Source: a virus
Length of the DNA: 64,000 bases
Virus record (IMG/VR): IMGVR_UViG_3300030329_004481
Direction: 5' to 3' (one strand)
Part shown: positions 1-30,897 of the stretch, one piece after another
How the letters are laid out: every line of letters begins with the position of its first letter
How positions within the stretch are numbered: the stretch's first letter is position 1
Made by a program: the position numbers and the translations under genes
The notes under the pieces: generated by a model
The model's database searches: none
Told to the model about the DNA's origin: nothing
Seen by the model: only the letters and a program-made list of their open reading frames with translations

Positions 1-1
1 T

Positions 2-430
2 GTTCTTGATATAGCATATGTAGGATCAACTAAAATTGAAAAAATTAATATACATAACAATGTACAAAAAATATTTTTCTCATTGTCAAAATGTTTCGGT
101 TTGCGTAACATAAGAACAGGGTGGTATTTTAGTAAAACTCCTGATAAAAAATTAGAACTACTAATAGGATCTGCAAAATATTATAATTATTATGCACAAG
201 CAGTAGCAGAACATTTTATCAATAAATATGATATAGATATTGTATATAAAACTCTTCGACCTATACAAGAAGAAGTATGTGAACAATTTAACTTAATACC
301 TTCTGATGTTGTATGGTTAGCAACAACCAATGATCCAAAATTTGAAAAATTTAAAAGAGGAAACATTTGCCGTGTCAGCATTGCGGAAGAAATATCAACT
401 GCCTACCATAGCAGAATTACCACAAATTAA
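2..430 (+). CDS. PLP-dependent fold-type I (aminotransferase class I/II-like) enzyme, 5'-truncated by the window edge
   Basis: Frame is open from nt 2 (VLDIAYVGSTK...FFSLSKCFGLRNIRTGW): DxAY and SxSKxxGLxxxRxG PLP motifs; paralogous to 19256..20137. The ORF-track start at 83 is internal. Confidence 0.7.
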   Translation, partial: VLDIAYVGSTKIEKINIHNNVQKIFFSLSKCFGLRNIRTGWYFSKTPDKKLELLIGSAKYYNYYAQAVAEHFINKYDIDIVYKTLRPIQEEVCEQFNLIPSDVVWLATTNDPKFEKFKRGNICRVSIAEEISTAYHSRITTN

Positions 431-1019
431 AATAAATTTATCAAAATTAAAAACAGAATATCTAAAATTTTGCTCAAAATTTATAGATGTGGAAACTGCA
501 AATCCTCATTTATGTATGAATCATAAAAAACTTGTAAGTGAAGTTTATGATAATTTTGAACAAATAAATCTTACAGAATTAAATGGCGAGCCCATGCCAT
601 ATACTGATAATATAAAAGAAAGAATAAAACGTAGAGAAGAAACATTATACAATAAAAAGACACAAGATTATATTGGTAGTTATTTTGAAAATATAGTAGA
701 ACAATTTATATCTCCTGCTATGAGGATAAGAATTACAAAACTTGCTCCTAAAAAAGAAATAACATGGCACACAGACTATGACCCAACATATGCTACAAGA
801 ATTATTATACCAATATATTCCAATAAAAAAGTTAAAAATTTATTTAAAGTCAGAAAAAATGTTGAAGAATATTTTTTAGAAGAAGGTAAAGCATATTTTA
901 TAAATGGGGGATTTGCTCATTCAGTTAAAAATGATAGTGAAAATTCAAGAATTGCATTAATGTTTAGTTTAGATGGACAAGATGATTTGGAAATTGTGCC
1001 CAATAGAATTACATATTGA
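330..1019 (+). CDS. Asp/Asn beta-hydroxylase-like Fe(II)/2OG oxygenase (true start probably GTG 372 or TTG 381)
   Basis: RIRITKL..WHTD..RIIIPI..GKAYFIN..AHSVKN..SRIALM: HxD...H...R double-stranded beta-helix signature. Confidence 0.8.
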   Translation: MIQNLKNLKEETFAVSALRKKYQLPTIAELPQIKINLSKLKTEYLKFCSKFIDVETANPHLCMNHKKLVSEVYDNFEQINLTELNGEPMPYTDNIKERIKRREETLYNKKTQDYIGSYFENIVEQFISPAMRIRITKLAPKKEITWHTDYDPTYATRIIIPIYSNKKVKNLFKVRKNVEEYFLEEGKAYFINGGFAHSVKNDSENSRIALMFSLDGQDDLEIVPNRITY

Positions 1020-1440
1020 AGAAATAAAAAAATTATTTAACAAAACAAAAGGACATAAACATCAAGACAATTATATTAAATGGCCTTTATTTGAATACAC
1101 AAAATTTGCAAGAATGGGGTGGGACAAACATCTTATATATTATTCTGCTGGTATTGAAAGACCTGAATACAATGGATCAATTAGAATAATGAGTAGACAT
1201 ACTAGAGACAGATCATATAATTTTGGAACATATAATGATGATTTAAAAAGAGGTTTGGAAACTTTAGAACAAAGTACATACTATGCAAAAAAATTAGGAT
1301 ATAAAAATATATGGGTTAGTAGAGAAGAAAGTCCAAAACTTTTAGAATATTTTTCCAAACATTCACAATATGATTGGAAATTAAATTATGAAAAATTACA
1401 TTATGGTGGTAAACAATATATTTTAAGAATCAATGACTAG
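973..1440 (+). CDS. Hypothetical protein, possibly GNAT-fold acetyltransferase
   Basis: 155 aa, overlaps both neighbours; LEQSTYYAKKLGYKNIWVSRE resembles the GNAT motif A/B region (weak). Confidence 0.35.
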   Translation: MDKMIWKLCPIELHIEEIKKLFNKTKGHKHQDNYIKWPLFEYTKFARMGWDKHLIYYSAGIERPEYNGSIRIMSRHTRDRSYNFGTYNDDLKRGLETLEQSTYYAKKLGYKNIWVSREESPKLLEYFSKHSQYDWKLNYEKLHYGGKQYILRIND

Positions 1441-2059
1441 TATAGTTTTTCCTCCTGGTAAATTTTTTTGTTACTTGAGACAACCAAAAAGTGCAAGTCT
1501 AAGTATGACAAAATGGATTATAGATTTTGCAAAACAAAATAAAAAACCATACTTAACTAGTTTGCCTTATCAACAAAAAAATTTTAATGTTGATTATGAA
1601 AAAAATACAATAATCACCCACCACATGACCGCACAAAGATTAAAAAATACTATTCCTCAATGGTGGAATGATATGGAAAAAATGGTAACAGTTAGAAATC
1701 CATGGAATATTTTAGCAAGTAAATTCTATCATATGAAAAAATTGGGTGTTAATCAAGTTGCAACAAATACCTTTAAAGAATTTTGTTATGAATTAAAAAA
1801 TTTAAGGGGAACTTTAAATCCAGGAGAGAACTACTATAAAATTGATGGTGATATGATCGCAGATCATATTATTCCTGTAGAAAATTTACAAGAATATTTA
1901 AATGAAATTTTTAAAGATTTTATTGTTCCAAAAGTTCAACACACAAATATAGGAACAGTAACACAAGAAAAATATAAAAACCTTTATACTGATGAAATAA
2001 ACAATATGATAGAAATTGATTTCAAATATGAAATAAAATTATTTGATTATAAATTTTGA
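1433..2059 (+). CDS. Sulfotransferase family 2-like protein
   Basis: YLRQPKSASLS (5'-PSB-like), HMTA, VTVRNPWNILAS (3'-PB-like), C-terminal YKNLY..DFKYEIKLFDYKF. Confidence 0.75.
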   Translation: MTSIVFPPGKFFCYLRQPKSASLSMTKWIIDFAKQNKKPYLTSLPYQQKNFNVDYEKNTIITHHMTAQRLKNTIPQWWNDMEKMVTVRNPWNILASKFYHMKKLGVNQVATNTFKEFCYELKNLRGTLNPGENYYKIDGDMIADHIIPVENLQEYLNEIFKDFIVPKVQHTNIGTVTQEKYKNLYTDEINNMIEIDFKYEIKLFDYKF

Positions 2060-3609
2060 TGTAATGGCCTAGATGGGTCACTTTCCCAACCAATCATATC
2101 ATTCTCAAAATTTAATTCATTGATATTTGACAAAGGAACAAGATTATCTTGAGGACGTTTATAATCTGCAGCATTTCCTTTTTCATGATCACCCAAAACT
2201 ATTCCCCCTTCACCATAAACACTTCCTGTTTTAAATTTCAATTCAATACATAAATTTTCTATTTCTTCTCTGCGTCTCACTCTAACATCCATAGTATTAT
2301 ATTCTTTTCCATTCTTTGTAACCCATTCATTTTCTTCATCAACATAATAATCAAACATATTATTTTTAAATACTGGTGCACCAGGTAAAATTATCATTGT
2401 TCCACCAATTTCTATTCTACTGATAGGATTTCCATTGATCATATGTTTATGATTTTTTATCCACTCTAAATTTTCTTTATGGTGTTTTTCTTTTTCATTA
2501 GGATATCCAACAACCATTAATAAAACAACATTAACATTATATTTACTATATAATTCTAAATTTTTTTCCATTATATCATTACTAAATTTTTTTCTCATGT
2601 GAGTGCGAATTTCTTCTGAAAAACTTTCTACACCAATACTAAGTTGTTTAATATTTGCTCTTTCCATTTTTTCATATATTCTTTCAGGCTGATTTTTAAA
2701 AATAGCCAATCCTTTGATGGATTTAAATAATGATCCATCTTTTATTATTAAATCTAATAATTTTTCAAATTCTTTTTGATTGCCATTAATCAAACTATCA
2801 TAAAAATATATTTCATTAATTCCAATATTTAATAAGTTTTTCATTTCATCATAAATATTTTTCGCACTTCTCCATCTAAACTTTGGCCAATAATGCTCTA
2901 CATCACAAAATGTGCATCTCCTAACACACCCACGACTTCCCATTATTCCTGCTTCAAGTTTTTCATATTTCCAATTTGGATTATAATGAACTCTCAATCC
3001 TCCTGGATCACCAGAAACGTAATTAGCAAAATCAATTCCTGTATAATCAGCTATAGGCAATTGGTCTAAATTTTCTATTTGTGGTGATTTGACAATTCTA
3101 TCTTTTATTTCACCTTTAATAATTTTAGGTAAAACCAAATCTCCCTCATTTGATACAGCATGATCTGCTAAATCATTTTCAATGATCCATTCAGCATAAG
3201 TTGATATTGGTGATCCACCAACTATTATTTTTTTATTAGAATTGTATTGTTTAATTTTAGGACTTAACATTTTCAAAGTGGGCAAACTTCTATAACTAAA
3301 ACAACTTATTCCTGCCCATTCAGCATCATTGTTTGCAATTTCTTTTGCCCATTTTTCAATGTAATCATTATAAACTTCTTTAACAAATTGTTTGAATTTC
3401 TTTCCCTTATACAAATCTGTATTGGATTCTTTCCATATTTCCCACCATTTACTATTAATTGTATCTTTCCATAATTCATAATTAAAATCTCTCAATTCAA
3501 CATCAATACCTTCTTGTTTACAAGAAGCCTGTAAATACCCTAAAGCAAGACTAGGAGTATTAACTCCATTTTTAGGAATAGTACATAGGAGTAATTTATT
3601 TTTCATCAA
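2047..3609 (-). CDS. Cobalamin-binding (class B-like) radical SAM protein
   Basis: PSLALGYL, GISCFS, IIVGG (B12-binding Rossmann domain); SRGCVRRCTFC; IGVES; VVGYPNE. Confidence 0.88.
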   Translation of the reverse strand: MMKNKLLLCTIPKNGVNTPSLALGYLQASCKQEGIDVELRDFNYELWKDTINSKWWEIWKESNTDLYKGKKFKQFVKEVYNDYIEKWAKEIANNDAEWAGISCFSYRSLPTLKMLSPKIKQYNSNKKIIVGGSPISTYAEWIIENDLADHAVSNEGDLVLPKIIKGEIKDRIVKSPQIENLDQLPIADYTGIDFANYVSGDPGGLRVHYNPNWKYEKLEAGIMGSRGCVRRCTFCDVEHYWPKFRWRSAKNIYDEMKNLLNIGINEIYFYDSLINGNQKEFEKLLDLIIKDGSLFKSIKGLAIFKNQPERIYEKMERANIKQLSIGVESFSEEIRTHMRKKFSNDIMEKNLELYSKYNVNVVLLMVVGYPNEKEKHHKENLEWIKNHKHMINGNPISRIEIGGTMIILPGAPVFKNNMFDYYVDEENEWVTKNGKEYNTMDVRVRRREEIENLCIELKFKTGSVYGEGGIVLGDHEKGNAADYKRPQDNLVPLSNINELNFENDMIGWESDPSRPLHQNL

Positions 3610-4207
3610 TGATCATATATCGCACAGGATTGTCTCCTAAATTTTTTACCTCATGGGATTTAGTGACATCTAGTTGCCATATTTCTCCTGGTTCTAGATT
3701 GTGCGTAATTCCTTTACAATCTTTAAAGCAATTACCCCCATTAGTACTTATTATCAAATGATAACGATTTGTTTCATTATCACCATCTATATGAGGTTTA
3801 AGAACAAAATTTTTATATCTTTGTCCAACAATAGCTTCACTTTTACTTAAATCACAACCAACTTCATTCTCTATTGATTTTTTAATATAGTCTACTACTG
3901 TACTTGTATCTTTTAAATATTTAGCAGAAAGTGTGGTGGTATGCGTTTGATGGTTAAACAACCTCAAACTCATAGCATCATATAATTCAAAATTATCTAT
4001 TCTTTGTTGTTTCAGTCCTTGCTTTCTATTAGCATACCAACTTTTTTGAGTTGTTCCTCCAGGATATATTATCATAGTTCTACGAGGAAGATCTTTATCA
4101 GCATATTTTTCATAGTCATTAACTAAATCATAGTAGGGTGATAATTCTTTATTTAACATATCTAACTTGTCAAAAAAGTTATATTTTAATTTTACTATGT
4201 TACTCAT
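3596..4207 (-). CDS. Asp/Asn beta-hydroxylase-like Fe(II)/2OG oxygenase
   Basis: LKPHID..RYHLIISTN..GEIWQLDVTKSHEVKNLG..RYMIID. Confidence 0.8.
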   Translation of the reverse strand: MSNIVKLKYNFFDKLDMLNKELSPYYDLVNDYEKYADKDLPRRTMIIYPGGTTQKSWYANRKQGLKQQRIDNFELYDAMSLRLFNHQTHTTTLSAKYLKDTSTVVDYIKKSIENEVGCDLSKSEAIVGQRYKNFVLKPHIDGDNETNRYHLIISTNGGNCFKDCKGITHNLEPGEIWQLDVTKSHEVKNLGDNPVRYMIIDEK

Positions 4208-4781
4208 CTAAAAAATCCACTATCAAATGTATGCGACTATGTGTCAAACTATCATTATTTGCTGCATGCTCTTTACTTGTATCCAATTTCCATATCTCAC
4301 CTGGCTTAGGATAAAATTTTTTTTCTGATTCAAATATTTCAAAATAACTATCTTTGTTAGATGTTAAGGGTATGTGATATCTTGTTAATCCCATAGTATC
4401 AATATGTTTTTCTAATCTAAATTTTGATCCAGCATATACTATAGCGACTTGTACTTTACCATTTACTCCCAATGTTTTTATTAATTTTTTCACATAAGGA
4501 CTTATGGTATCTTCTTTTTTTAAGTAAGCACTCACCATCCTAGTACCAAATTTTGTGTATCTTGTATATAACTTGACATGATTATTTTCTATAATATCCC
4601 ATTTTTCTCCTTTACGTTTATGACTAGTATAGTGAGATGTACCAGAAGGATAATTGCACATAACTCTAATTATATCATCAGGCCATTTGTCAGCGATTTT
4701 AGTAACTTCTTGTATGTAATACTGCAAATCAATAAGTAATTGTTCACTATCAACATTAATGTTTAATTTTTCACACTGCAT
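4200..4781 (-). CDS. Asp/Asn beta-hydroxylase-like Fe(II)/2OG oxygenase
   Basis: LEKHID..RYHIPLTSN..GEIWKLDTSKEHAANN..SRIHLIVD. Confidence 0.82.
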   Translation of the reverse strand: MQCEKLNINVDSEQLLIDLQYYIQEVTKIADKWPDDIIRVMCNYPSGTSHYTSHKRKGEKWDIIENNHVKLYTRYTKFGTRMVSAYLKKEDTISPYVKKLIKTLGVNGKVQVAIVYAGSKFRLEKHIDTMGLTRYHIPLTSNKDSYFEIFESEKKFYPKPGEIWKLDTSKEHAANNDSLTHSRIHLIVDFLDE

Positions 4782-5274
4782 TTACATCTCCAATCAAATG
4801 TAATCTATTTGTTTTTCCAAAATTGTACGCCGTGTGTTTTTTACTAGTATCTAATTCATATACTTGGTTAGGTAAATAATTAATTTTAATATCTTCTGTT
4901 TCAATGAAACAATTTTCATTTGTAGTTATTGGAATGTGTATTCTAGTCCCTTCAAAATAATCAGTATGCCAATTCATTTCAAACCCTGGACTCATACAAG
5001 CAACTACAAAATTGTCAATATTATATTGCTGTTTTATATCTTGTAAGAAATTTAAATCATATTTTTGTTTATATTTACAATGATATATCTCAATATTAGG
5101 TTTAGGACCAATGCATTTGTATATATTATTCTCAACAAATGTAGGCAATTTCATTTGTTCCCAACTACGATGTTCACTTATATAAAAAGTTATCCTACAT
5201 GGTTTTTTTATAGAATTTGTTAATTCTTCAGCATTGTCAATAATGAATTTAAAATTGTTGGTTAAGTTGACCAT
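4771..5274 (-). CDS. Asp/Asn beta-hydroxylase-like Fe(II)/2OG oxygenase
   Basis: MSPGFEMNWHTD..RIHIPITTN..LDTSKKHTAYNFGKTNRLHLIG. Confidence 0.85.
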   Translation of the reverse strand: MVNLTNNFKFIIDNAEELTNSIKKPCRITFYISEHRSWEQMKLPTFVENNIYKCIGPKPNIEIYHCKYKQKYDLNFLQDIKQQYNIDNFVVACMSPGFEMNWHTDYFEGTRIHIPITTNENCFIETEDIKINYLPNQVYELDTSKKHTAYNFGKTNRLHLIGDVNAV

Positions 5275-6151
5275 CTAAAGATCTTTCTACAAGTCTACAA
5301 AACTTTTTGTCTGTTAATGGTACATAAAATATTATATGACAACGGAATACATCTGTAGGATTATCAACTGCGTGATCATAAACATAATTAAATACCCAAG
5401 CTTCACCAGGACTATAATGTTCACCATAAATTATATCATTTTTACGCACAAGCATATTTACTTTAGGATCAGTATATAGTGGTAAATGTACAATAGCTTT
5501 ATCATTTACAATAATATCATTATGCCAAGGAAGTCTTGCATGGTTATGCCAATTTAAATATCCTCCATCTTTAATTTTCCATATGTGCATACGATATTTG
5601 TTGTCAGCAATATGTTTATCAATAAAATTTGTAACAGTAGGTAGTTGATCATAAATTTCAGTTTTATAAAATTTCATATCTTCGCTATTTAAACGAGGAA
5701 CATTATCTACAATACTTGCAGCATACTTTTGATATTCAGGATACGCCCATGCTGATTCTTCTTTTGCTTGTTTACCTTGTCCTGTCCAACTATGAGGTGT
5801 GTAGTTAATCATTGTTTTACTATACCAATGAGGATGCAACAAAGGCCCCCTTTCTTGTGTTTCTTTATAATTACGCAGATTACATCTGCTATATGACTCT
5901 TCGTCTAACTTTTGAACCTCTTGCCATGCTTGTTCATAATCAAATACAGGTAAATCAAGTTTAAGATGAGGAATTTCTTTTATCTTAGCACTGACAGGAT
6001 TTTCATATTCATATTGTTTAATTTTTTCTACATATTTTTGTTTTTCCTCATGATCAACTTGTTTATCAAAATCAGGAACAAACTTATCTTCTTTACTTTT
6101 CCAAGGTACTTGAAGATTAGGATGAATATCTTTTTCATTTATAATTTTCAT
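5249..6151 (-). CDS. Asp/Asn beta-hydroxylase-like oxygenase, HxH variant
   Basis: GGYLNWHNH..IVHLPL..GEAWVFNYVYDHAVDN..RCHIIF. Confidence 0.75.
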   Translation of the reverse strand: MKIINEKDIHPNLQVPWKSKEDKFVPDFDKQVDHEEKQKYVEKIKQYEYENPVSAKIKEIPHLKLDLPVFDYEQAWQEVQKLDEESYSRCNLRNYKETQERGPLLHPHWYSKTMINYTPHSWTGQGKQAKEESAWAYPEYQKYAASIVDNVPRLNSEDMKFYKTEIYDQLPTVTNFIDKHIADNKYRMHIWKIKDGGYLNWHNHARLPWHNDIIVNDKAIVHLPLYTDPKVNMLVRKNDIIYGEHYSPGEAWVFNYVYDHAVDNPTDVFRCHIIFYVPLTDKKFCRLVERSLDGQLNQQF

Positions 6152-6864
6152 GGTGTGTACCCTTCTTCATAGTGTGGTTTCCAATCTAAAAAATCAACCA
6201 TAAAAAATATACGCCCAGCACAACCTGGCCGACTGTTGTCAAATATATGTATATTTTGTGTATTTACTTTGTACAGCACTGCTTTGTCCATACTTAACCA
6301 AACTTCTTCAACTTCACCATCTTCGTGTGTATACTGCCAACCAAATTGTCCTTTTAGTGTAGTAGTAATAGGAAATTGAAATCTATGATGCGTATAAAGA
6401 TCCTGATGCCATTGCATGCAAAAATCAGGACCTTTGTACATCACCAACATTACTTTGTATTTGTCTTGCAATTCTTCTTTTTCAGCAATAGTATCAATTA
6501 ACTTTTGTACATATTTTCCTACTTCATAGTTTGGTTTCTTAGTGAGTATACCATGCACAATGTATTCCTCATCTGTACCTTTTCTAAAATAATTACAATT
6601 AAGAACATAATTATTAAACTCCACTTCTTCATAGAGTCCTTGTTCAGTTCTTTCACGTTTTTGTTCTGGTGATGTATAAGGTGTGTGTCCCATCGGCCAA
6701 CTTAAATTAAAGTAATCTCCGCCTGGATTATTATATCCACTATTAAGATGTTGTTTTATTAAGTTAATAGCAGGTTGTATATCAGAAACTATACCATTAT
6801 ACCATTCTTCTGTCATTTTAACATCTAATACTTTACTAAGGCCAAGTTGTTCGCTTCGGTGCAT
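6148..6864 (-). CDS. Asp/Asn beta-hydroxylase-like Fe(II)/2OG oxygenase
   Basis: MQWHQD..RFQFPITT..YKVNTQNIHIFDN..GRIFFMVD. Confidence 0.75.
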   Translation of the reverse strand: MHRSEQLGLSKVLDVKMTEEWYNGIVSDIQPAINLIKQHLNSGYNNPGGDYFNLSWPMGHTPYTSPEQKRERTEQGLYEEVEFNNYVLNCNYFRKGTDEEYIVHGILTKKPNYEVGKYVQKLIDTIAEKEELQDKYKVMLVMYKGPDFCMQWHQDLYTHHRFQFPITTTLKGQFGWQYTHEDGEVEEVWLSMDKAVLYKVNTQNIHIFDNSRPGCAGRIFFMVDFLDWKPHYEEGYTP

Positions 6865-7495
6865 TCCGACCTCCTAACGCTTTGTCCCATAACCAATAAC
6901 AAGCATCTGGTGTGGGTTCAACATTTAAAAGCAAAAGCAAACAACCATCAATAAAACTTACAACCCAATGATTTTTTAAAGTATTCAAAAAATATGATTT
7001 TCCTTCTTGTAATGGTAAAATTTTATCTTCATACCCCCACTTAAAATCATTTGTTCCTGTGTTCCAAATTGGTATAACAATGCGAAATGAATCCAATCCA
7101 TCGTGGTGAGGGGGAAATATACCACCTTTATTTAAATTTATAAAGTGACTTCTACAAAGATAAGGTTTTGCATCTTGAATAAGTGGAATATCATCTGATA
7201 CTAAATCATACAATTCTGTTTTAGTTTTAAAATCAGTCTCTAAAAAATTAGTACCATTTTCTTTATTATAACTTCTGATACTATCTACACTTGGACTGAC
7301 AGGATTACCATCTTTATTTACAATAGCCAATCCCTTCACACCTGGATTTACTCTCTCAAACCATCCATTTTTATCTCCATATTCAAAAACTTTCTTTGCT
7401 ATTTTCACATAATCAATTTTAGGATATAGAGTTTCTAAAAAATCGCCGGCACTAACTATAGCACTATAGTTAAGTTGTCTGTCTAGCATACTCAT
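6836..7495 (-). CDS. Asp/Asn beta-hydroxylase-like Fe(II)/2OG oxygenase
   Basis: RSHFINLNKGGIFPPHHD..RIVIPI..GKSYFLNTLKNH; the terminal Arg is not evident. Confidence 0.75.
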   Translation of the reverse strand: MSMLDRQLNYSAIVSAGDFLETLYPKIDYVKIAKKVFEYGDKNGWFERVNPGVKGLAIVNKDGNPVSPSVDSIRSYNKENGTNFLETDFKTKTELYDLVSDDIPLIQDAKPYLCRSHFINLNKGGIFPPHHDGLDSFRIVIPIWNTGTNDFKWGYEDKILPLQEGKSYFLNTLKNHWVVSFIDGCLLLLLNVEPTPDACYWLWDKALGGRNAPKRTTWP

Positions 7496-8102
7496 TAAAA
7501 TGCTCCTTTATTTTTTCAAAAGTATAATCATATTTAAAATTCAATTGAAATAAAAAACGTTTTTTATTTGTTTTATTTTCTACACTATGTTTTATTTCAG
7601 TATTAATTAAGGTAGTTTGATCATATATTGTTTCAAATCTTTTTGGTGTTAACCAATAAGTTGTGCTACCTTCAAGACTTAAAGGAAAACTCAAATTACA
7701 TTTTCTAAAACTATCAATATGTGGAATAAATGTGCTATGTTCTGGAATAACAATAATACTAGAACAATGAAAAAATAAATTTAAATCAATATCTAAATTA
7801 CTTATTACATCAGATATTAATTCTCTTGAGTGATTTAATAAATTAAAATAATGTTTTTGATCTGATACTGGAACTAATTCAGGACTTTCAATATATGCAC
7901 CTTGATTAAATGAATTAGCTATTGTTAAATATTTACACTTTTTATCCTCAACAGCATCGTATGAAATTACTTTGTCATTAGTTACAGTAAAAAAATATCC
8001 ATTCTTTTCTAATTTTTTTACTTCATCATATATTAAAGAACGTAAAAAATTATCTAATTTATAATCAATATTAATCCAAAGGTTTTTTGAATCCAAATTC
8101 AT
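7470..8102 (-). CDS. Asp/Asn beta-hydroxylase-like Fe(II)/2OG oxygenase
   Basis: FIPHID..CNLSFPL..LINTEIKHSVEN..KRFLFQLNF. Confidence 0.75.
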   Translation of the reverse strand: MNLDSKNLWINIDYKLDNFLRSLIYDEVKKLEKNGYFFTVTNDKVISYDAVEDKKCKYLTIANSFNQGAYIESPELVPVSDQKHYFNLLNHSRELISDVISNLDIDLNLFFHCSSIIVIPEHSTFIPHIDSFRKCNLSFPLSLEGSTTYWLTPKRFETIYDQTTLINTEIKHSVENKTNKKRFLFQLNFKYDYTFEKIKEHFNEYARQTT

Positions 8103-16907: not shown

Positions 16908-16913
16908 ATAATC

Positions 16914-21254: not shown

Positions 21255-21942
21255 ATTCTAATATTGATTGTATAGATTTATTATAACAACTAAAAAAATG
21301 AGGTGCTTTTCTCCACGCAAATGATTCTGGATCAATTAACAACAATTTATCATTATCTAAACAAAGAACATTTTGTTCTGCAATATCATTATGAAAAAAA
21401 TAAAATGTTTCTAAATTATCATGAAACTGGTCAATTGGTTCTTGATTAATAAAAACTAATCTTTCATATGTACCTAGATATGGATATTTAAAATATTTAA
21501 ACATATCAACATACCAACTTGTAAATTCATTCATTACGTAAAGAAAAAATTCTTTATGTTCTTTTTCATTATCCAACATTGATACTAATTTATCATCCAA
21601 TTGCATAAAATTATCATGTTTTTCTAAAACTATTAAAAAAAGATCTGGATCTTTAAAAAGAGGAAAATGACCGTGAACTTTCACCAAAAAATTAAATTTT
21701 TCAGATACTTCTTTATATTCATTATATTCTTCAGATGGAAAATCTTTAACAATTTTTAAAAAATAATTATCATATTGAGTTACATCAACAACTTGATTCA
21801 CTTTATTGAAAATATCTTCAATTGAATATTTACTTGTATTTTGAATATTATCATGAAAAATAGTTGCAGAATAAATGATATCTTTTTGTGCTTTATTCAT
21901 TTCAACATAATAATCCATAATATTCTTTCGGCAATATATCAA
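21217..21942 (-). CDS. APH/choline-kinase-like phosphotransferase (true start possibly 21918)
   Basis: YFLKIV (ATP-binding Lys), FHNDIAEQNVL (Brenner HxDxxxxN), LLIDPE. Confidence 0.7.
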   Translation of the reverse strand: MIYCRKNIMDYYVEMNKAQKDIIYSATIFHDNIQNTSKYSIEDIFNKVNQVVDVTQYDNYFLKIVKDFPSEEYNEYKEVSEKFNFLVKVHGHFPLFKDPDLFLIVLEKHDNFMQLDDKLVSMLDNEKEHKEFFLYVMNEFTSWYVDMFKYFKYPYLGTYERLVFINQEPIDQFHDNLETFYFFHNDIAEQNVLCLDNDKLLLIDPESFAWRKAPHFFSCYNKSIQSILEYGFVDVEKNISK

Positions 21943-23311
21943 TAATTTTAATTCCTGTATGATTTTCTCTAACTTTTATGTAATTCCAAAATTGTTGTTT
22001 ATATTTCCACTCCACATATTTTTTTGAATTTTTTAATAAAGTTATAATATCTAAGTATTCTTGCATACATAGATTTTTAAAACTAACAGATTCAACTTTA
22101 TTAAAAATATCAAACGCTTTTGATTCAAGAAAATCAATTAAAAATTCTTTAGTTTGTTTATCTAAATATTCAACATTTAAAAATTCATTATCACCAATAC
22201 ATTGATTTAATGATATTCCAGGAGCTGAGTCCTTATATTTTTCATTATATTTTTCAATAAGTTTTATTATCCATTTTACAAAATCTGGTAAGGTCATTAT
22301 GTTTATTGTTGAATATGCTGAATTAAAATGTAAATTAAAATTTCTCCATTTTCCGAATTCATAATCATTACCATTAAATTGATAATTTTCAATTATGTAA
22401 TTAACATTTCTATCAATCAGGTTCCAATTTCCCGGCCATCTTGTAAAATTATAAGTTCCGCCATACCCATCAAGACTAGCTGAAATTTCTGCAGTTTCAA
22501 ATTTTGAAAGTATGTTAAGTTTTTTTCTTGAAATTTTTGTCAAATTACTACAAAAAGATAATTTAATATTTTTGGACAATTTTTTTTCAATAAGGTCTTC
22601 AAATTTTTTCCATAAAGAATTGATTATAAATGGTTCTCCGCCTGTTGAATATAAGTGTCTTATATTTGAATCCATTGAATCTAAACTTTTTAAAAAAACA
22701 TCGCTATCAGTCCAAGAAATTTCTTTTGATTTTGAATTTAATTTATTAACAGTATTTAATTTTTTAAGTGACTCATCACTAAAAACTGACTCATTTCCCA
22801 ATTCAATTTGTTTATTCATATAATTTTGTAAACTAGTACTATTGAGAGGATGACACATAATGCATGATAAATTACATTTTGCACTCAATTTTATATCCAA
22901 ATAATATGGCAAATCACTTACATTATAATTTTCCATTGATTCCACACGTCGTTTTACAAGATTGCCATTACCATCATCAATAATTTGAATTAAATTTTGA
23001 TTTTGTCTATAACTTACAGTTTTTCCATTTTTTTCTTCTCTATAGCATTCACTACAATTAATTACCTTTTTACCATTCATCATATCTTTTCTAATGCTTT
23101 TCATATGATCACTATTCCATACTTCTTCTACACTATGAATTGAGGTATGTGTTTCTTGACCATCATTTGAAAAAATTGGATGTTCTGCTTTACAACACAA
23201 TTTATAAAATCCACTAGTATCAGTAGATATGTGTATCCAAGGAAAAACACAAAATGTATCAGTATTTTTAATAAATTTTTTCAAAAATTTTTCTGTTTTC
23301 TCTACTTTCAT
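21902..23311 (-). CDS. N-terminal Twitch domain radical SAM protein
   Basis: FCVFPWIH..LCC..CSEC; CNLSCIMC; TGGEPF; SLDG..NFTRWP. Confidence 0.88.
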   Translation of the reverse strand: MKVEKTEKFLKKFIKNTDTFCVFPWIHISTDTSGFYKLCCKAEHPIFSNDGQETHTSIHSVEEVWNSDHMKSIRKDMMNGKKVINCSECYREEKNGKTVSYRQNQNLIQIIDDGNGNLVKRRVESMENYNVSDLPYYLDIKLSAKCNLSCIMCHPLNSTSLQNYMNKQIELGNESVFSDESLKKLNTVNKLNSKSKEISWTDSDVFLKSLDSMDSNIRHLYSTGGEPFIINSLWKKFEDLIEKKLSKNIKLSFCSNLTKISRKKLNILSKFETAEISASLDGYGGTYNFTRWPGNWNLIDRNVNYIIENYQFNGNDYEFGKWRNFNLHFNSAYSTINIMTLPDFVKWIIKLIEKYNEKYKDSAPGISLNQCIGDNEFLNVEYLDKQTKEFLIDFLESKAFDIFNKVESVSFKNLCMQEYLDIITLLKNSKKYVEWKYKQQFWNYIKVRENHTGIKIIDILPKEYYGLLC

Positions 23312-24709
23312 CTATAACAAACCTTTCATTTCAGGAAAAGTCTCTTTAAAATTAGTACCACGAATTCTATCCATAATTGTAATATATTCTACAAATTCGA
23401 CCATTCTATTTGACCAATTTTCTGATTTCATAAATGTTATCAATCCTTTAAGTCCTTTTAATCCATAGTTTGCATTTTTCCATTCATCAAAAGATACCTT
23501 ACCTTTATACCAAGATGGAATGCCTTTTTCCCAATTATTCTTCCACCACCCATAAAAATCAACATATTTTAAATGACAATCATCTTTAAACCATTGAGGT
23601 AAAATTTTTACATTTAATTGTGGTGGATGATATACAAAATGATAATTAATAGCACCAGCTCCAAATGGCCACATATTGATTTTTTTAAATCCTTCATCTA
23701 ATTTCCATTTTATAAAATCTGGTATATAATATATGTTCAATGCTTGAACTGCACACGCAAGAGTAACTTCAACATTATCATCTGTATTATCAAGTAGATG
23801 CATTTGTTTTACTTGATGATCCCATTTACTAGGATATCTTATATAATCATTCATAACACCAATAGAATCAATACTGTAATGAAATCTTACACGTTTAAAT
23901 TTATCCCATAATTTAAACAATCTGTCTGGCATTTCAACGCCATTACTATTGTATCTCAATTCAATTTGTTCAGCATATCCCATTTCAATTACTTTTTCAA
24001 GTAAAGTATAATGTTCTTCTATTATAGTACTTTCACCACCAGCAAAGTATAATTGATAAATGTTGGGTATCTGGCCATATAAATCATCCCAAAACTTAGG
24101 ATTATTTTTATACCAATTATATGAAGCACCATGTTCATCTTTACCACCACCATGCCATTGTGCTGTATATTTTAATGATTCACTTTTTACTTGTGGATAA
24201 TATTCTTTCCAATCTGAAACCCATGCTGAAGAATCATGTGGACTGCACATAATACATTTTAAATTACATTTAGAACCTAAACGTAAATCAATATATCTAA
24301 TTTTTGGTGGAATTTCACCATCCTCTTTTGTTTCACTTAAAATATCATCTAAACTAAATCTTTCTAACCAATATCTAGTTTCCCATGTTCTTTTTGATAA
24401 ATGTCCCGCATCTTCTTCTTTAAAACATTTCATACAACTATTGGGTCTTTCTCCCGCAAGCATTTGTTTTCTTACATTCTTCATATAAGAATTATTCCAA
24501 GATTCATTTAATCCTGCTACATTTAAATTAGCAGGTTTACCATCTTCTGTACGAAGTTCACCAACCTTGCCTCCATGTTGTTTATAATCAGTCTTTCCTA
24601 CAGAAGATGCGTTTGCGGTACAACAAACCCTCATTGCTCCATCAGGCCTTGTACTAAGGTGCATCCATGGCAATGCACAAAAAGTTTCACTTGGTAATTT
24701 TATTGCCAT
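23312..24709 (-). CDS. N-terminal Twitch domain radical SAM protein
   Basis: FCALPWMH..RVCC..CMKC; CNLKCIMC; AGGES; NSNG; SIDS..DYIRYPSKW. Confidence 0.9.
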   Translation of the reverse strand: MAIKLPSETFCALPWMHLSTRPDGAMRVCCTANASSVGKTDYKQHGGKVGELRTEDGKPANLNVAGLNESWNNSYMKNVRKQMLAGERPNSCMKCFKEEDAGHLSKRTWETRYWLERFSLDDILSETKEDGEIPPKIRYIDLRLGSKCNLKCIMCSPHDSSAWVSDWKEYYPQVKSESLKYTAQWHGGGKDEHGASYNWYKNNPKFWDDLYGQIPNIYQLYFAGGESTIIEEHYTLLEKVIEMGYAEQIELRYNSNGVEMPDRLFKLWDKFKRVRFHYSIDSIGVMNDYIRYPSKWDHQVKQMHLLDNTDDNVEVTLACAVQALNIYYIPDFIKWKLDEGFKKINMWPFGAGAINYHFVYHPPQLNVKILPQWFKDDCHLKYVDFYGWWKNNWEKGIPSWYKGKVSFDEWKNANYGLKGLKGLITFMKSENWSNRMVEFVEYITIMDRIRGTNFKETFPEMKGLL

Positions 24710-25770
24710 TGCGCTTTATACGCATCAAACCCTGTACCACATTTGTTAGCACAGACTTTTAGTTTACCTTCCTTTACACTGGAACATGACCAAGAATTTT
24801 CAATCATATTAAAAAAATCTCCTTCAATTATATCTTTCAGTTCATTATATATAGCATTTATATTGTTGGCGTCTTTGATCATATTCCATATTGGTGCTTC
24901 TTTTGGTTTCCAATACCATTTATATTGCTGTCCACCCAACCAACAACAAGGGAAAATATGACCTTCAGCAGTGACAAATATTTCTGATTTTTCAATAGAT
25001 TTACAATTAATATCAGTAACATCATAATAATGATCCATACTTCCATACTTATTAACTAGATCCTTTTCTTGCTTTAACGCACTATTGATATACTCATCTT
25101 TTGGTTTTTCTAATTTTTGTGTTTCTTGTCCTTTTCTATTCATTCCTTGGTGAGATTCTTTTCCTTCATGTTTAACAGTAGAAAAAAATCTTCCTGTTTT
25201 CTTTGTTCTAAAATCATCAAACCTCATCTTTTTCGCTAACTCTCTTGCTTCTTCTATCTGATGTTGATTGTGGTCAAATATGATGAATTCCCAACGTGCT
25301 CTACCACCTTTAGAAATAAATGCAGCAGAATTTTTCATACAGTTTTCCCAATTAACACCTTGTCTATATAAATGATTTGTATCACCCAAACCGTCAAAAG
25401 AAAAAGTAACATGACCTTTTCTTCCCATGATAATTGCTAACTCTTTCCACCATTCAACATCTTGTGCACCACCATTTGTATTCATTGAAAGATGCATATT
25501 GTTATTTTCAATTCTAAAATATTCTAAGCCATAAATACTATCATGTGAAATACATGGATCACCAAGATTACCACACATATACATATGATCCAATTGTTTA
25601 ATAAATTCTTTTCTAAATATTATATGATAATCTAAAGTACTTAATTCTGCACCTGTGAGATATGGATTATCTTTACCGCCATTTATATTGCGATCGCATT
25701 GAAGACATGCTGCTTGACATTTTTGTGTGGGTTCAATATGAACACTTTTAATATCAGAATATTTTAACAT
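24700..25770 (-). CDS. Radical SAM protein with C-terminal SPASM/Twitch domain
   Basis: CQAACLQC; CGNLGDP; NTNG; FSFDG..HLYR; C-terminal CKS..GHIFPCCW..CANKCG. Confidence 0.87.
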   Translation of the reverse strand: MLKYSDIKSVHIEPTQKCQAACLQCDRNINGGKDNPYLTGAELSTLDYHIIFRKEFIKQLDHMYMCGNLGDPCISHDSIYGLEYFRIENNNMHLSMNTNGGAQDVEWWKELAIIMGRKGHVTFSFDGLGDTNHLYRQGVNWENCMKNSAAFISKGGRARWEFIIFDHNQHQIEEARELAKKMRFDDFRTKKTGRFFSTVKHEGKESHQGMNRKGQETQKLEKPKDEYINSALKQEKDLVNKYGSMDHYYDVTDINCKSIEKSEIFVTAEGHIFPCCWLGGQQYKWYWKPKEAPIWNMIKDANNINAIYNELKDIIEGDFFNMIENSWSCSSVKEGKLKVCANKCGTGFDAYKAQWQ

Positions 25771-26512
25771 GACAAATTTTTTCTGTTTAAAATGGGGAAC
25801 AAAATATTCACCAACATATGTGAATAGATTATTTAATTCACTTAAAGTAAATTATAACCATTCTTTTAATTTTCATTGTCTTACAGATAATTCTGATGGA
25901 TTGAATAAAAATATTGAAATAAAACCAATACCCAAAACATTTTCAGAATATCCAAGAACACAAATTTTTACTTCTGAAAAAATGTGCTACTTCCATGACT
26001 ATGCTTATTTATCTGGAAAGAAAGCATGGTTTGATTTAGATATACTAATACATGGTAACATAACAAATCTAATTAATCAAGAACACAAAAAAATAAAATT
26101 TATATGGAATTATTGGAGAGATCCATGGTCTTCAATAAAAAATTATGGATTCTTAACAACACCAATCAATTCATCTTTTGTTGCATGGCAAGATGATGTT
26201 GGACAAGATATATATGAAGAACTAATAAAAAATAAAGAAAAAGCATTTTTTACTTATCCATCATTTGACAAATACCTGTTTTATCAACCACATAGAAAAA
26301 ATAAAATAAATTTCTGGCATGAAGGAATTGTTTATAATTACAATGTAGGTGCAAAATATCCACACAACTTATTCCCAAAACAATATATGAAAGATTATAA
26401 AATATGCCTTTTTAATACTTCTCATAAAGCATGGGCTAGATCAAATGAAACACACTTTGAGTTACATGAAACTGATGATTGGGCAAAAGAAATTTGGGAA
26501 AGTTATGTTTGA
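25769..26512 (+). CDS. GT-A fold glycosyltransferase-like protein
   Basis: CLKWGTKY..YVNRL, FHCLTD, WFDLDILI (DxD), INSSFV, ICLFN. Confidence 0.72.
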   Translation: MTNFFCLKWGTKYSPTYVNRLFNSLKVNYNHSFNFHCLTDNSDGLNKNIEIKPIPKTFSEYPRTQIFTSEKMCYFHDYAYLSGKKAWFDLDILIHGNITNLINQEHKKIKFIWNYWRDPWSSIKNYGFLTTPINSSFVAWQDDVGQDIYEELIKNKEKAFFTYPSFDKYLFYQPHRKNKINFWHEGIVYNYNVGAKYPHNLFPKQYMKDYKICLFNTSHKAWARSNETHFELHETDDWAKEIWESYV

Positions 26513-27026
26513 ATTAAAATACAATACACCAAAAGAAATACATTATCTTATTGATTGGTCATGCAATGATAACAACAGATTGATAACAAAAAACTTATAT
26601 GAAACAATAATAAATTTTTATAATGATGAAAGAATTAATTTTTTATGTAGTTGGTTTTGTGGATTAGAATATGAACATTTTGATAAGATGGGATTCGATT
26701 GCCATTATTATGATGTTGATGAATATGTTTGTAAAGCTAATAAAGAATTAACAAATAAAGTCTATAATGTTGATGTAATTTTTGATGAAGTTAAAATTGA
26801 AGAAGGATTATATGTAAACAAATTTTGTGAAGACACATATCCTATCGGAAAAATTTATAAAGGTGAATTTGTCTTAATAGGATCAGACAATGATCATTTA
26901 GCATGTATAAATCAAATACATAATATAGATACATTAATAGAACAAAATGAATTGACCAAAATTTATTCTACAAAAACATTTAAAGGTTTATTTAACTATT
27001 ACATGGTGGCAGGATGCAATTTATAA
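26505..27026 (+). CDS. Hypothetical protein, degenerate methyltransferase-like (paralog of 27014..27742)
   Basis: FLCSWF..YYDVD..VNKFCED..CINQI..NEL aligns by eye with IIGGWF..FYEID..INTSCEH..HINCV..NEI of the next gene. Start moved to ATG 26505. Confidence 0.45.
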   Translation: MFELKYNTPKEIHYLIDWSCNDNNRLITKNLYETIINFYNDERINFLCSWFCGLEYEHFDKMGFDCHYYDVDEYVCKANKELTNKVYNVDVIFDEVKIEEGLYVNKFCEDTYPIGKIYKGEFVLIGSDNDHLACINQIHNIDTLIEQNELTKIYSTKTFKGLFNYYMVAGCNL

Positions 27027-27742
27027 ACATAGTAAAAGACATTGAAAAGATTGATAAAGAAGATTTAGATCTTAATTATGAAATAGGACAATTACAAAAG
27101 AAAAAGGGCAAATTACTTCATGAAAGAAATAAAATATCTAAAGATTATAAAAAAAGTCCATATTATTTTATTAAAAAATGGATTACCAAATTTCATCCAC
27201 ATTTACTAGAAAGTTACAATGATTCCATCTCAGATGGGCAATATAAATCAAAAATGTGGTTAAGAAGTGCTCTTAAAAATATACAACAACCACAACATCC
27301 ATTACATATAGAAATAATTGGTGGATGGTTTGGATTTCCTTTGATTGAAATGCTTGATTTTTTAAAAATAAAACAAATAGACTTTTATGAAATTGATGAG
27401 GATTGTAAAAAAGTTTTAGTCCAATATAGAAACAAATTTAAATATGATTTTAAAATTGTTGAATTTGAAAATTATTTTGAGAGAGAAGAATTGAGAAGAC
27501 GTGATATCATAATAAACACATCATGTGAACATATGGATGATATATCAAAAATGAAAAAGTATTATAAAAATAAACCCCTTTTAGTTCTACAATCAAATAA
27601 TTATTCTGAAATTGATGATCATATCAATTGTGTACAATCTTCAAATGAATTAAAAAGTAAAAATGAAATAAACATAAGTTATTATGCACAAGCATTACAA
27701 TTGGAAAAATATACAAGATACATGGCAATAGGTCAATGGTAA
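27014..27742 (+). CDS. Class I SAM-dependent methyltransferase-like protein
   Basis: GQYKSKMWL, IEIIGGWFG (motif I-like), FYEID, IIINTSCEHM, LVLQSNN. Confidence 0.6.
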   Translation: MQFINIVKDIEKIDKEDLDLNYEIGQLQKKKGKLLHERNKISKDYKKSPYYFIKKWITKFHPHLLESYNDSISDGQYKSKMWLRSALKNIQQPQHPLHIEIIGGWFGFPLIEMLDFLKIKQIDFYEIDEDCKKVLVQYRNKFKYDFKIVEFENYFEREELRRRDIIINTSCEHMDDISKMKKYYKNKPLLVLQSNNYSEIDDHINCVQSSNELKSKNEINISYYAQALQLEKYTRYMAIGQW

Positions 27743-28290
27743 CTATCATATTAGTTTGTACAGGGACAAAATATGATGAATGGTATGTAAACAACATAAT
27801 ACATATGATTAAAAATTATGGTAATTTAATTTATGATGAAATACAAATAATAAGAAAAGGTGAAGGTAGTGTATATGACAAACTCCAAATGTTTAGAGAT
27901 TTTACAGAAGAAAGATATTACCTTTATTTTGATTTAGATGTTGTGATTAAAGGTGACATAAATCATTTAGTAAGAAAAGAATTTACAACTCTTTTTGCTT
28001 GGTGGCGACCCAAATTACATACACCAATTAACTCATCAATTATGTCATGGTCTGGTGATAATTCATATATTTACTATGATTTCCATGAAGATGAAAACTA
28101 CAGTAAAGTAAAATATTGGAGAGGAATTGATGAATATATTTACAAAGAAACATATTGTCAATTATATGAAAAAGTTTGCTGGTCATGTGCGTATGATGCA
28201 AAGGAATTGAATTATCCTGTATGTCTTTTTAATCATGGTAAAGATATGAAAAAAATTGAATGGACACAAAAATATTTGCTCTCAGAATAG
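27736..28290 (+). CDS. GT-A fold glycosyltransferase-like protein
   Basis: VCTGTKY..YVNN, KLQMF, LYFDLDVVI (DxD), INSSIMSW, VCLFN. Confidence 0.72.
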   Translation: MVTIILVCTGTKYDEWYVNNIIHMIKNYGNLIYDEIQIIRKGEGSVYDKLQMFRDFTEERYYLYFDLDVVIKGDINHLVRKEFTTLFAWWRPKLHTPINSSIMSWSGDNSYIYYDFHEDENYSKVKYWRGIDEYIYKETYCQLYEKVCWSCAYDAKELNYPVCLFNHGKDMKKIEWTQKYLLSE

Positions 28291-28907
28291 GAAACAGATA
28301 TGGTATTGAATATGAAGATTATCTAAATTCTAAACTAGATAATATAACATGGATTCATGAACCATATAGAGATAATGTACTATTTCAATGGAATAAATTA
28401 TTTTTAATGAATCTTGAGATAGATGAACCAATTGTTGTCATAGACATTGACATATTACTAATCAATGATTATATGAAATTGATAGACTATCCTATTAAAG
28501 AAGATGAATTTGTATCTATTCATTCTTGGTGGAGAGATACAGACAATCCAAATTACACAATGAATGGTGGGTTTCAAAAATACTATCCAAAATCATGTAA
28601 ATACATTTATGAAAAATTTATGAGCGATCCAATACATTGGCAAAGTTATTATATAAAAAATGGAACAACTATTGGACCAGTAAATGGAGAACAATATTTT
28701 GTAGAAGATTCAGTCAAAGAAAAATTAAAATTAAAATTAGTACCCTCTGAATGGGTATGTAGATTTAAAGAAACATATACAATGGATTGGCTATATAACA
28801 TTAATAAAAAATATCCAGGTGACTATATGTACATGGGTGATTTTAATCCAGATATAAAACTTATTCACTTTAATCAATATGGAAATACTAAAAGAATTTT
28901 TGACTGA
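28260..28907 (+). CDS. GT-A fold glycosyltransferase-like protein
   Basis: LRIGNRY, WNKL, VIDIDILL (DxD), MNGG, GEQYFV, LIHF. Confidence 0.68.
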   Translation: MDTKIFALRIGNRYGIEYEDYLNSKLDNITWIHEPYRDNVLFQWNKLFLMNLEIDEPIVVIDIDILLINDYMKLIDYPIKEDEFVSIHSWWRDTDNPNYTMNGGFQKYYPKSCKYIYEKFMSDPIHWQSYYIKNGTTIGPVNGEQYFVEDSVKEKLKLKLVPSEWVCRFKETYTMDWLYNINKKYPGDYMYMGDFNPDIKLIHFNQYGNTKRIFD

Positions 28908-29331
28908 AGAACAATGTTTTGATATAATTGTTCAAAGAAAAAATGATTTAAGAAAATCACACATTTTTGGTGGGTTTACTAATAAAATAAGAAATTCAAG
29001 ATCTTCATATTGGAAGAAAGATTCTTTATTAGATAAAAAATTTAATTATCAATCAGTCGAATATCAATTAGTTGAATATGTGAAAGATTGCCATTACACA
29101 TGGCATGATGATGATAGTTTCAGAAGAATAGAAACAAATATAATTTTATTAAATGATAATTTTGAAGGTGGGGAATTTGAGTTAAAAGATTATGGAATTA
29201 TTAAATTAAATATTGGCGATTGTTTAAACTTTAAATCAACCTTAGATCACAGGGTAAAACCAGTGACCAAAGGTATTAGATACTCTTTGGTCACATGGTT
29301 ATATGATCAATCAGAAAAACCTATAATTTGA
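28879..29331 (+). CDS. Prolyl-4-hydroxylase-like 2OG-Fe(II) oxygenase
   Basis: QLVEY..YTWHDD..LLNDNFEGGEF..HRVKPVTKGIRYSLVTW (HxD..H..RxS). Confidence 0.88.
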   Translation: MEILKEFLTEEQCFDIIVQRKNDLRKSHIFGGFTNKIRNSRSSYWKKDSLLDKKFNYQSVEYQLVEYVKDCHYTWHDDDSFRRIETNIILLNDNFEGGEFELKDYGIIKLNIGDCLNFKSTLDHRVKPVTKGIRYSLVTWLYDQSEKPII

Positions 29332-30884: not shown

Positions 30885-30897
30885 AATTACATTTCCA

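Follow-up and report, generated by a model that had tools for sequence, protein, structure and literature searches.

The stretch of viral DNA considered here, IMG/VR record IMGVR_UViG_3300030329_004481 (64,000 nucleotides, hereafter the window), carries between positions 2 and 29331 an island of 34 consecutive coding sequences (CDS), mostly for modifying enzymes, a point on which the list of open reading frames (ORFs) and the family searches both agree with a preliminary description of the same DNA. That description held that the island acts on a macromolecule, with the neighbouring fibre or virion proteins, or a glycan built on them, as the likeliest candidates. We find instead that a core cassette of the island travels independently of fibre genes. 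This cassette consists of a methyltransferase, two small radical S-adenosylmethionine (SAM) enzymes, several paralogous radical SAM enzymes with an N-terminal twitch domain (hereafter N-twitch enzymes), B12-binding radical SAM enzymes, a short-chain dehydrogenase/reductase (SDR), a pyridoxal phosphate (PLP) enzyme and cupins. Since it recurs in viral loci with no homologue of the structural genes of this phage within 10 kb, and also in chromosomes of Bdellovibrionota, the proposed virion substrate is not upheld, and a cytoplasmic pathway acting on small molecules is the reading that we tentatively prefer.

Radical SAM enzymes of the island

All ten radical SAM genes counted in the preliminary description were confirmed, each with a CxxxCxxC motif, and all are encoded on the minus strand. 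They comprise two B12-binding enzymes, six members of the family N_Twi_rSAM (NF033640) and two short proteins. The six N-twitch genes score 203–422 bits against NF033640, all above its curated cut-off of 170 bits, and are located at 11900–13717 (203 bits), where the enzyme is fused to a class I methyltransferase with C-terminal Methyltransf_25/31/11 matches, and at 13707–14915 (255 bits), 18019–19266 (325 bits), 20115–21254 (374 bits, with more than 1500 homologues among public proteins), 21902–23311 (260 bits) and 23312–24709 (422 bits, 70% identical to L001). Their N-terminal Cys-rich twitch/SPASM-like domain is matched by PF13186 at residues 11–95, and its invariant cysteines (Cys15, Cys33, Cys34, Cys83 and Cys86) are followed by those of the radical SAM core (Cys130, Cys134 and Cys137). 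Against the PDB, the N-twitch profile gives weak matches to SkfB (the best), an uncharacterised radical SAM protein, archaeal tetraether lipid synthase, viperins and BlsE. In the literature searched, functional work on NF033640 or on the radical SAM expansions of Bdellovibrio was not found.

The first of the two B12-binding enzymes (2047–3609, PF04055 and PF02310) is probably of the C- or P-methyltransferase type; its best NCBIfam matches are the C-methyltransferases of ribosomally synthesised and post-translationally modified peptides (RiPPs) and the PhpK type, all scoring far below their cut-offs. The second (8642–10459, PF04055) is KedN5-like, reaching 160 bits with NF033712 against a cut-off of 700, and is 75% identical to its homologue in the viral locus L107. 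The small enzymes are a conserved cassette member at 10875–11906 (PF04055) and the protein at the head of the cassette at 24700–25770, which has the CxxxCxxC motif and is TIGR04317-like at 40 bits.

Cupins, other oxygenases and accessory enzymes of the cassette

Eleven Fe/2-oxoglutarate (2OG)-type oxygenases had been proposed for the island, of which eight are firm while three (6836, 7470 and 16914) are placed there on weaker evidence. Six genes (330, 3596, 4200, 4771, 5249 and 14912) exceed the cut-off of the cupin family PF05118, and 6148 was assigned to the same type by blastp and a local hidden Markov model (HMM); the HxD...H iron triad is kept in all seven. They are found at 330–1019 on the plus strand (31 bits against a cut-off of 22.6), in an array of five on the minus strand (3596–6864; genes 3596, 4200, 4771, 5249 and 6148), which was recognised by PF05118, by paralogy and by the triad and is free of transmembrane helices, and at 14912–15625 on the minus strand (73.5 bits), the last being a conserved cassette member. 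The remaining firm case is a 2OG-Fe(II) oxygenase at 28879–29331 on the plus strand (PF13640, 46.7 bits). Two divergent cupin-like proteins on the minus strand (6836–8102; genes 6836–7495 and 7470–8102) match the local cupin HMM at 6e-8 and 1e-3, and a 384-aa protein at 16914–18068 (minus strand) possibly has a 2OG oxygenase fold, its Atlas feature and structure matches to 2OG-FeII_Oxy clusters serving as leads only. The latter protein also has an inserted pair of CxxC motifs resembling a zinc ribbon.

When compared with the PDB, the cupin profile is closest to L-proline cis-4-hydroxylase (4.7e-15), followed by a 182-aa protein named "Beta-hydroxylase" by its depositor and by human AspH (about 1e-6). 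We rejected membership of the PF05118 cupins among the protein hydroxylases, as the profile is nearer to free-proline hydroxylases than to AspH and no target with a Cys-rich, epidermal growth factor (EGF)-like domain was found among the nearby fibre proteins, which are 0–1% Cys and have no such motif.

The two PLP enzymes of the earlier count are both retained. The complete one, at 19256–20137 on the minus strand, has a fold-type I, class I/II aminotransferase-like model (AlphaFold, predicted local distance difference test (pLDDT) score of 91.5; Foldseek 1e-9) with an invariant Lys184, and its Foldseek matches are amino-acid aminotransferases, C-S lyases, threonine-phosphate decarboxylase, GntC, RohP and Plu4. 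The other, at the left edge (1–430, plus strand), is the 3' part of a 263-aa PLP-fold paralogue whose start lies 361 nt left of the window and whose full gene is seen at L011 13177–13968; it clusters with the 19256–20137 family and keeps the invariant Lys. The predicted SDR was likewise borne out: the gene at 10456–10902 (minus strand) encodes a short, classical SDR-like oxidoreductase with a YxxxK motif, whose family profile (A7) matches classical SDRs of the PDB at 1.8e-13, with farnesol, clavaldehyde and 4-hydroxyisoleucine dehydrogenases as relatives. Two of the proposed methyltransferases are upheld, namely the C-terminal part of 11900–13717 by Pfam and, by fold, the conserved cassette member at 27014–27742 on the plus strand, a class I SAM-dependent enzyme (AlphaFold pLDDT 85.5) whose Foldseek matches are Coq5, NodS and C-methyltransferases.

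Recurrence of the cassette in viruses

Genes for relatives of the N-twitch enzymes are present in at least 596 IMG/VR stretches. We examined 83 viral loci with flanks of 10 kb, which are short relative to the size of the cassette and limit what can be said of absences. Each locus has between one and eight N-twitch copies (mean 4). Radical SAM genes of the 10875 type and of the 24700 type are each present in 69 of the 83 loci, the methyltransferase in 48, the PLP enzyme in 29, the 14912-type cupin in 25 and the 6836-type cupin in 16, and with looser clustering the SDR is seen in 31 and an FA_desaturase-like protein in 11. In a further marine phage, a stretch of 21 kb contains at least 11 radical SAM genes. 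About 20 cassettes hold, between the methyltransferase and the first radical SAM gene, a conserved 74-aa Asn/His-rich protein (e.g., L108 2681–2902 and L002 430–660), which is a candidate carrier, partner or precursor. An HMM of this protein finds no copy in the window or in the left extension of the island described below.

The preliminary description had proposed to ask whether homologous islands stay linked to fibre or baseplate genes; homologues of the fibre, VrlC, baseplate or neck genes of this phage were found within 10 kb in none of the 83 viral loci. This bears directly on the idea that the island builds or tailors a glycan on the fibre or virion proteins, or modifies their residues, so as to alter receptor binding or shield the particle. 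Virus-encoded virion glycosylation occurs in chlorella viruses, mimivirus and mycobacteriophages, one viral cassette (L016) abuts a fibre-like Mtd_N/PTL_trimer gene, and the island has weak glycosyltransferase (GT)-like genes, sulfotransferase-like genes and an Epimerase-type SDR. Nevertheless, we consider such decoration unlikely, since the cassette recurs without these structural-gene homologues and in bacteria, and since in jumbo-phage records that have a T4-type portal, including a complete one of 328 kb, it lies 45–80 kb from the baseplate-J-like and portal genes. In addition, the PLP fold is of the amino-acid type and not visibly of the sugar-aminotransferase type.

Protein searches for gp14 and gp8 in five large cassette-bearing viral records gave no match. 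A non-T4 identity of these large phages was rejected, because a T4-type portal was found in four of five such records, and the phages are therefore called a distant T4-type lineage. Exchange between lineages can be followed in one segment: window positions 5249–11906 are syntenic with L107 14315–21083 over about 7 kb that encode enzymes only, with protein identities mostly of 61–81% and two genes at 55% and 34%, whereas the baseplate-J-like protein of L107 and gp6 of this phage share 27% identity over about 95 residues. The synteny of the one and the poor match of the other point to horizontal exchange of enzyme-only segments, and also argue against a substrate among the virion proteins.

Bacterial relatives and the possibility of envelope remodelling

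Among one-per-species genomes, the N-twitch family is concentrated in Bdellovibrionota/Oligoflexia, with some members in bacteria of the candidate phyla radiation (CPR) and in a few others, while it is found in none of 14 control genomes. The genomes with the family have 5–14 paralogues each, often in tandem arrays of up to eight genes, as seen in Bdellovibrionota/Oligoflexia and a Parcubacteria genome (e.g., L024, L055, L067 and L097). One bacterial array lies beside an EF-G gene on a 3-Mb contig and is therefore chromosomal. Members of the methyltransferase, PLP, cupin and SDR families of the phage cassette also flank bacterial N-twitch arrays. That NF033640 is so heavily represented among marine phages and Bdellovibrionota arrays emerged from the present analysis. 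Longer N-twitch homologues are fused only to a second radical SAM domain or to a B12-radical SAM domain, which ties both enzyme classes to one process; natural fusions of an N-twitch enzyme with a B12-binding radical SAM enzyme (P0163–P0165) are about 890 aa long.

Among 139 ORFs neighbouring the bacterial N-twitch genes, further radical SAM genes are the commonest (16), and GT2 glycosyltransferases (5), carbamoyltransferases (3) and Asp_Arg_Hydrox genes (2) are among the commonest others. These neighbours can be counted in favour of another explanation, in which the enzymes remodel the host envelope, altering lipopolysaccharide, capsule or lipids during infection and, for example, blocking superinfection or aiding release. 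The FA_desaturase-like membrane enzyme that recurs with the cassette fits this explanation, as does the inclusion of the lipid A hydroxylase LpxO in PF05118. LpxO, however, is membrane-bound, unlike the island cupins, which have no transmembrane helices; indeed, the FA_desaturase-like protein is the only one among the island enzymes with such helices. A modification of O-chains has been proposed for glycosyltransferases at the genomic site to which the island belongs (PMC7029224). Within the island itself the evidence for glycosyltransferases is weak, and the Pfam search of the island ORFs revealed neither a flippase nor a polymerase, ligase or nucleotidyltransferase, so envelope remodelling appears rather improbable to us.

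Further island genes

Several genes outside the recurrent cassette could be assigned less firmly. The two sulfotransferases of the earlier count have borderline Pfam scores, while being clear paralogues of each other (blastp 6e-16): the protein of 1433–2059 (plus strand) matches Sulfotransfer_1 at E 0.007, below the cut-off, and that of 8071–8757 (minus strand) matches Sulfotransfer_2 at 22.2 bits against a cut-off of 22. The proposed kinase at 21217–21942 (minus strand) may be a small-molecule kinase related to choline kinase and aminoglycoside phosphotransferase (APH), as the motifs HNDIAEQN and LIDPE suggest, though it has no Pfam, PHROG or PDB sequence match. Of the GT-like genes, two plus-strand paralogues at 25769–26512 and 27736–28290 match phrog_1962, weakly in both cases (8.9e-5 and 5.9e-4). 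A virion glycosylation system would call for clear glycosyltransferases and a nucleotide-sugar pathway; the island has these weak matches, one short Epimerase-type gene and no nucleotidyltransferase. The possible GCN5-related N-acetyltransferase (GNAT) of the preliminary description gained no support from searches of the island ORFs. A GT-A-looking cassette family that is absent from the window (alignment A6) had no match in the PDB.

The genes at 973, 15564, 21217, 26445 and 28260, among others, have no Pfam, PHROG or PDB sequence match. They include a 155-aa protein at 973–1440 (plus strand), a 447-aa protein at 15564–16907 (minus strand) that is known from phages only and possibly has a Rossmann-like fold according to low-confidence Atlas leads, a 193-aa protein at 26445–27026 (plus strand) and a 215-aa protein at 28260–28907 (plus strand).

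Extent, setting and expression signals of the island

The 34 CDS are arranged as four on the plus strand, 24 on the minus strand and six on the plus strand, and adjacent island CDS overlap or are at most 6 nt apart, so that a precursor-sized ORF has no intergenic room. The 24-gene minus block and the six-gene plus block begin on a common CATG at 25768–25771 with zero intergenic DNA, and therefore the promoters and ribosome sites of both blocks lie within the opposite gene. As had been expected, the island runs past the left edge of the window. An exact-protein look-up of matching contigs recovered a left extension of 2.9 kb, with five genes encoding the remainder of the PLP paralogue, an FA_desaturase-like membrane protein, a 213-aa protein, an Epimerase-type SDR and a 232-aa protein, beyond which gp13, gp14 and gp15 are transcribed divergently. 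The whole island, limited by gp13 on the left and by fibre genes on the right, thus measures about 32.3 kb with about 39 genes. The same look-up showed an identical gene order on 24 contigs, and the index lists 34–36 collection blocks in which the longest contig is above 50 kb; a contig of 244,604 bp has 236x coverage. One gene order across 24 contigs rules out for the island the chimeric assembly against which the preliminary description had warned. The G+C content is 24–31% over the island and 28–35% over the structural genes. There is a compositional step between the radical SAM block (8001–24000, 24–30%) and positions 30001–58000 (mostly 31–35%, with one interval at 29%).

The reported position of the island beside the late genes for fibres, VrlC and baseplate was confirmed on the right side by PHROG matches and tblastn. 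Fibre-like and other virion structural genes occupy 29307–35541 on the minus strand, as judged from PHROG virion-structural and baseplate matches, from tblastn to virion structural proteins of cyanophages and from composition; they provide context and are not shown to be substrates. VrlC, the right boundary marker, is a 1999-aa protein encoded at 35538–41537 (minus strand), with tblastn identity of 34% to VrlC of HTVC008M over 74% of the protein. Further along, the window has a T4-type virion module with baseplate wedge, hub, tube and head-closure proteins (PHROGs), whose gp6 homologue is 36–38% identical to its best cultured relatives, Methylophilales phage Melnitz and Pelagibacter phages Mosig and HTVC008M. 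By megablast, the structural region had no match among cultured phages.

In the marine pelagimyophages and cyanomyophages, the stretch from VrlC to gp13/gp14 has been described as a hypervariable host recognition cluster (HRC) (Zaragoza-Solas et al. 2020, PMC7029224). It combines fibres with many non-structural enzyme genes, including radical SAM cassettes that are gained and lost between close relatives (PMC7029224), and has a mean size of 44.6 kb, the described pelagimyophage genomes measuring 132–164 kb (PMC7029224). Here, VrlC is located at 35538–41537 on the right and gp13/gp14/gp15 to the left of the island, the fibre-like genes at 29307–35541 have about 39 enzyme-type genes to their left, and HTVC008M holds different genes at the corresponding place. 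The island is therefore the enzyme-rich part of the published HRC in an abundant marine T4-like phage. In HTVC008M, the same spot has, in the same orientation and diverging from gp13, four 2OG-Fe(II) oxygenases and a gene with a ferrochelatase domain. A second enzyme insertion in the structural module of that phage is formed by a 2OG oxygenase gene and a tryptophan-halogenase gene between the small and large terminase genes (63198–65157, L177). A radical SAM gene of the island tested against cultured phages had single-gene matches only, in KVP40-like phages and a few others, with nothing resembling the island.

Because the site is the published hypervariable HRC, adjacency to fibres is expected for any cargo located there, and the position of the island within the structural module, which in itself favours virion decoration, is weakened by the site being a general cargo hotspot. 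Gly, Ser, Thr and Asn are abundant in the fibre proteins, Cys is almost absent, and neither collagen-like nor Cys-rich/EGF-like repeats were found in them, which likewise speaks against their decoration. As for late expression, the motif TATAAATA is depleted in the whole window (4 copies against 17.4 expected). One of its copies, at 49253–49260 on the minus strand, lies 13 nt before the baseplate gene 48786–49247. Sense-strand copies of NATAAATA precede baseplate, tube-cap and hub genes (41542–43296, 60411–61448 and 63176–63886), and a further copy lies inside a coding region at −48 of 13707–14915. The operon heads of the island are without a sense-strand late-promoter motif, another point that detracts from virion decoration.

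The same hypervariability of the site can be used to argue that there is no single pathway at all, and that independent auxiliary genes have gathered at a recombination hotspot, with the paralogue arrays reflecting diversifying selection or the tuning of 2OG and Fe-S metabolism. The mosaic make-up of the island, whose segments differ greatly in their similarity to other contigs, and its three transcription blocks of opposing orientation are in line with this argument, and cyanophage 2OG oxygenases have been regarded as modulators of 2OG or as enzymes of DNA repair (PMC3037559). We nevertheless give little credence to it, since the same six to eight families are found together in bacteria as well as in dozens of phage loci, N-twitch and B12-binding radical SAM enzymes exist as fusions, and the gene overlaps are like those of translationally coupled operons.

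Families absent from the island

The absences listed in the preliminary description are supported by the Pfam scan and the ORF spacing. Among the island ORFs of the window, no Pfam match was obtained for non-ribosomal peptide synthetases or polyketide synthases, transporters, peptidases, ThyA-like hydroxymethylases, TET/JBP or Que/Dpd, and the spacing gives no precursor. A RiPP recognition element, a leader peptidase and an exporter are also missing from the Pfam families of the island ORFs. Accordingly, membership among the RiPP clusters was rejected, there being no room for a precursor and no recognition element, peptidase or exporter.

Hypermodification of DNA or nucleotides, in which the enzymes would make a modified base or nucleotide, has its attraction in the thymidine hypermodification pathways, where radical SAM enzymes, PLP enzymes and a kinase work together, and in the weak matches of the N-twitch profile to viperins and BlsE. 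It is nonetheless highly improbable. Neither a hydroxymethylase nor an aGPT-pyrophosphorylase-like transferase, TET/JBP or Que/Dpd was found in the island, the island proteins are without a Walker A or P-loop kinase motif, and the island lies outside the replication module. Membership in the DNA-hypermodification systems was rejected on account of the families missing among the island ORFs.

A possible small-molecule pathway

With virion proteins, envelope and DNA weighed in this way, we regard the island as a mosaic made up of mobile enzyme cassettes, the core of which would tentatively form a cytoplasmic, small-molecule tailoring pathway, an interpretation that we favour while holding it with less than even confidence. 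We infer one common pathway of the island genes and a small substrate; the enzyme families and folds, the recurrence of the cassette and its independence from structural genes are direct observations. The small-molecule reading is supported by the accessory enzymes, the PLP, SDR and cupin proteins, whose closest relatives of known structure act on free small molecules; the methyltransferase fold, with its Coq5 and NodS matches, is counted with them, and so is the lack of transmembrane helices in every island enzyme except the FA_desaturase-like one. The substrate would be a low-molecular-weight compound supplied by the host and related to amino acids, sugars or nucleosides, and the pathway would operate in the infected cell's cytoplasm. 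The steps might comprise radical C-H chemistry together with C-methylation, hydroxylation, transamination or elimination, redox conversion and methylation, with phosphorylation and sulfation as possible additions, and the weak GT-like proteins might hand the product to an acceptor.

Several points weigh against this interpretation. Peptides or proteins are frequent substrates of radical SAM enzymes that have auxiliary clusters, and the best PDB sequence match of the N-twitch family is SkfB; similarly, PF05118 is named for protein hydroxylases, and the fold similarities (TM-scores of 0.5–0.65) are insufficient to fix a substrate. About 10 of the 39 island genes are without a family assignment, and a scaffold-forming enzyme, a ligase and an exporter were not found by Pfam among the island ORFs. 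At the operon heads of the island there is no late-promoter motif, be it TATAAATA or NATAAATA. The cassette of L016 does abut a fibre-like gene, the site does adjoin fibres both here and in HTVC008M, and the island genes could be independent cargo and not one pathway.

With somewhat more doubt, we suggest that the cassette may represent an uncharacterised biosynthetic pathway found not only in marine T4-like and jumbo phages but also in predatory Bdellovibrionota and some CPR bacteria, by which a new small molecule, for instance a heavily tailored compound resembling an amino acid, sugar or nucleoside, would be made and used in the takeover of one cell by another or by a virus. Radical SAM-rich phage islands are common in the ocean, and the present phage has been assembled from dozens of samples. 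A cassette that is independent of fibres, is common to predatory bacteria and has accessory enzymes resembling small-molecule enzymes provides a defined and testable target. It also calls for caution, as function should not be inferred from adjacency at a known cargo hotspot.

Comparison with known systems

In its enzyme classes, the island resembles the aminoglycoside-type (carbohydrate or aminocyclitol) and nucleoside tailoring pathways, a likeness that does not amount to membership. Twitch radical SAM enzymes, B12-dependent radical SAM C-methylases, PLP enzymes, an SDR, an APH-like motif, methyltransferases, Fe/2OG oxygenases and GT-like proteins are the features in common with the aminoglycoside type; the island differs in that neither a sugar-phosphate cyclase or other scaffold enzyme nor a gene for resistance or export was found, and all matches stay below the equivalog cut-offs. 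The RiPP systems of the proteusin and sactipeptide kinds are similar in their many radical SAM enzymes, including those like B12 C-methylases, and in their Fe/2OG hydroxylases and methyltransferases. They differ from the window, which has no precursor, recognition-element domain, peptidase or transporter, and the PLP and SDR enzymes do not fit them.

From the environment, a T4-like viral genome has been described that holds 12 radical SAM genes together with Fe-S assembly genes (Nishimura et al. 2017, PMC5332604), the radical SAM genes being listed as users of Fe-S clusters (PMC5332604). Like the phage analysed here, it is marine and T4-like with a dozen radical SAM genes, and among the loci related to our island there are some with FeS_assembly_P and ClpP genes beside the cassette, although the paper gives no cassette structure, family assignment or substrate. 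In two such loci of another phage lineage (L013 and L015, positions 1–2328), genes for FeS_assembly_P, aldehyde dehydrogenase and ClpP stand before the cassette. This arrangement is in keeping with the connection, already published, of Fe-S assembly genes in phages with genomes rich in radical SAM genes.

The closest correspondence is with the HRC itself. Both are large, non-syntenic islands inside the structural module, with VrlC on one side and the neck genes on the other; in this case VrlC to gp13 measures about 38.5 kb, close to the published mean of 44.6 kb. The difference is that the host phage genome here is about 245 kb and that radical SAM and cupin genes, not glycosyltransferases, dominate. 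The island is thus a large further example of a kind of island already described, and not a new kind; its main interest lies in the chemistry carried out by the N-twitch cassette, which is common to phages and predatory bacteria.

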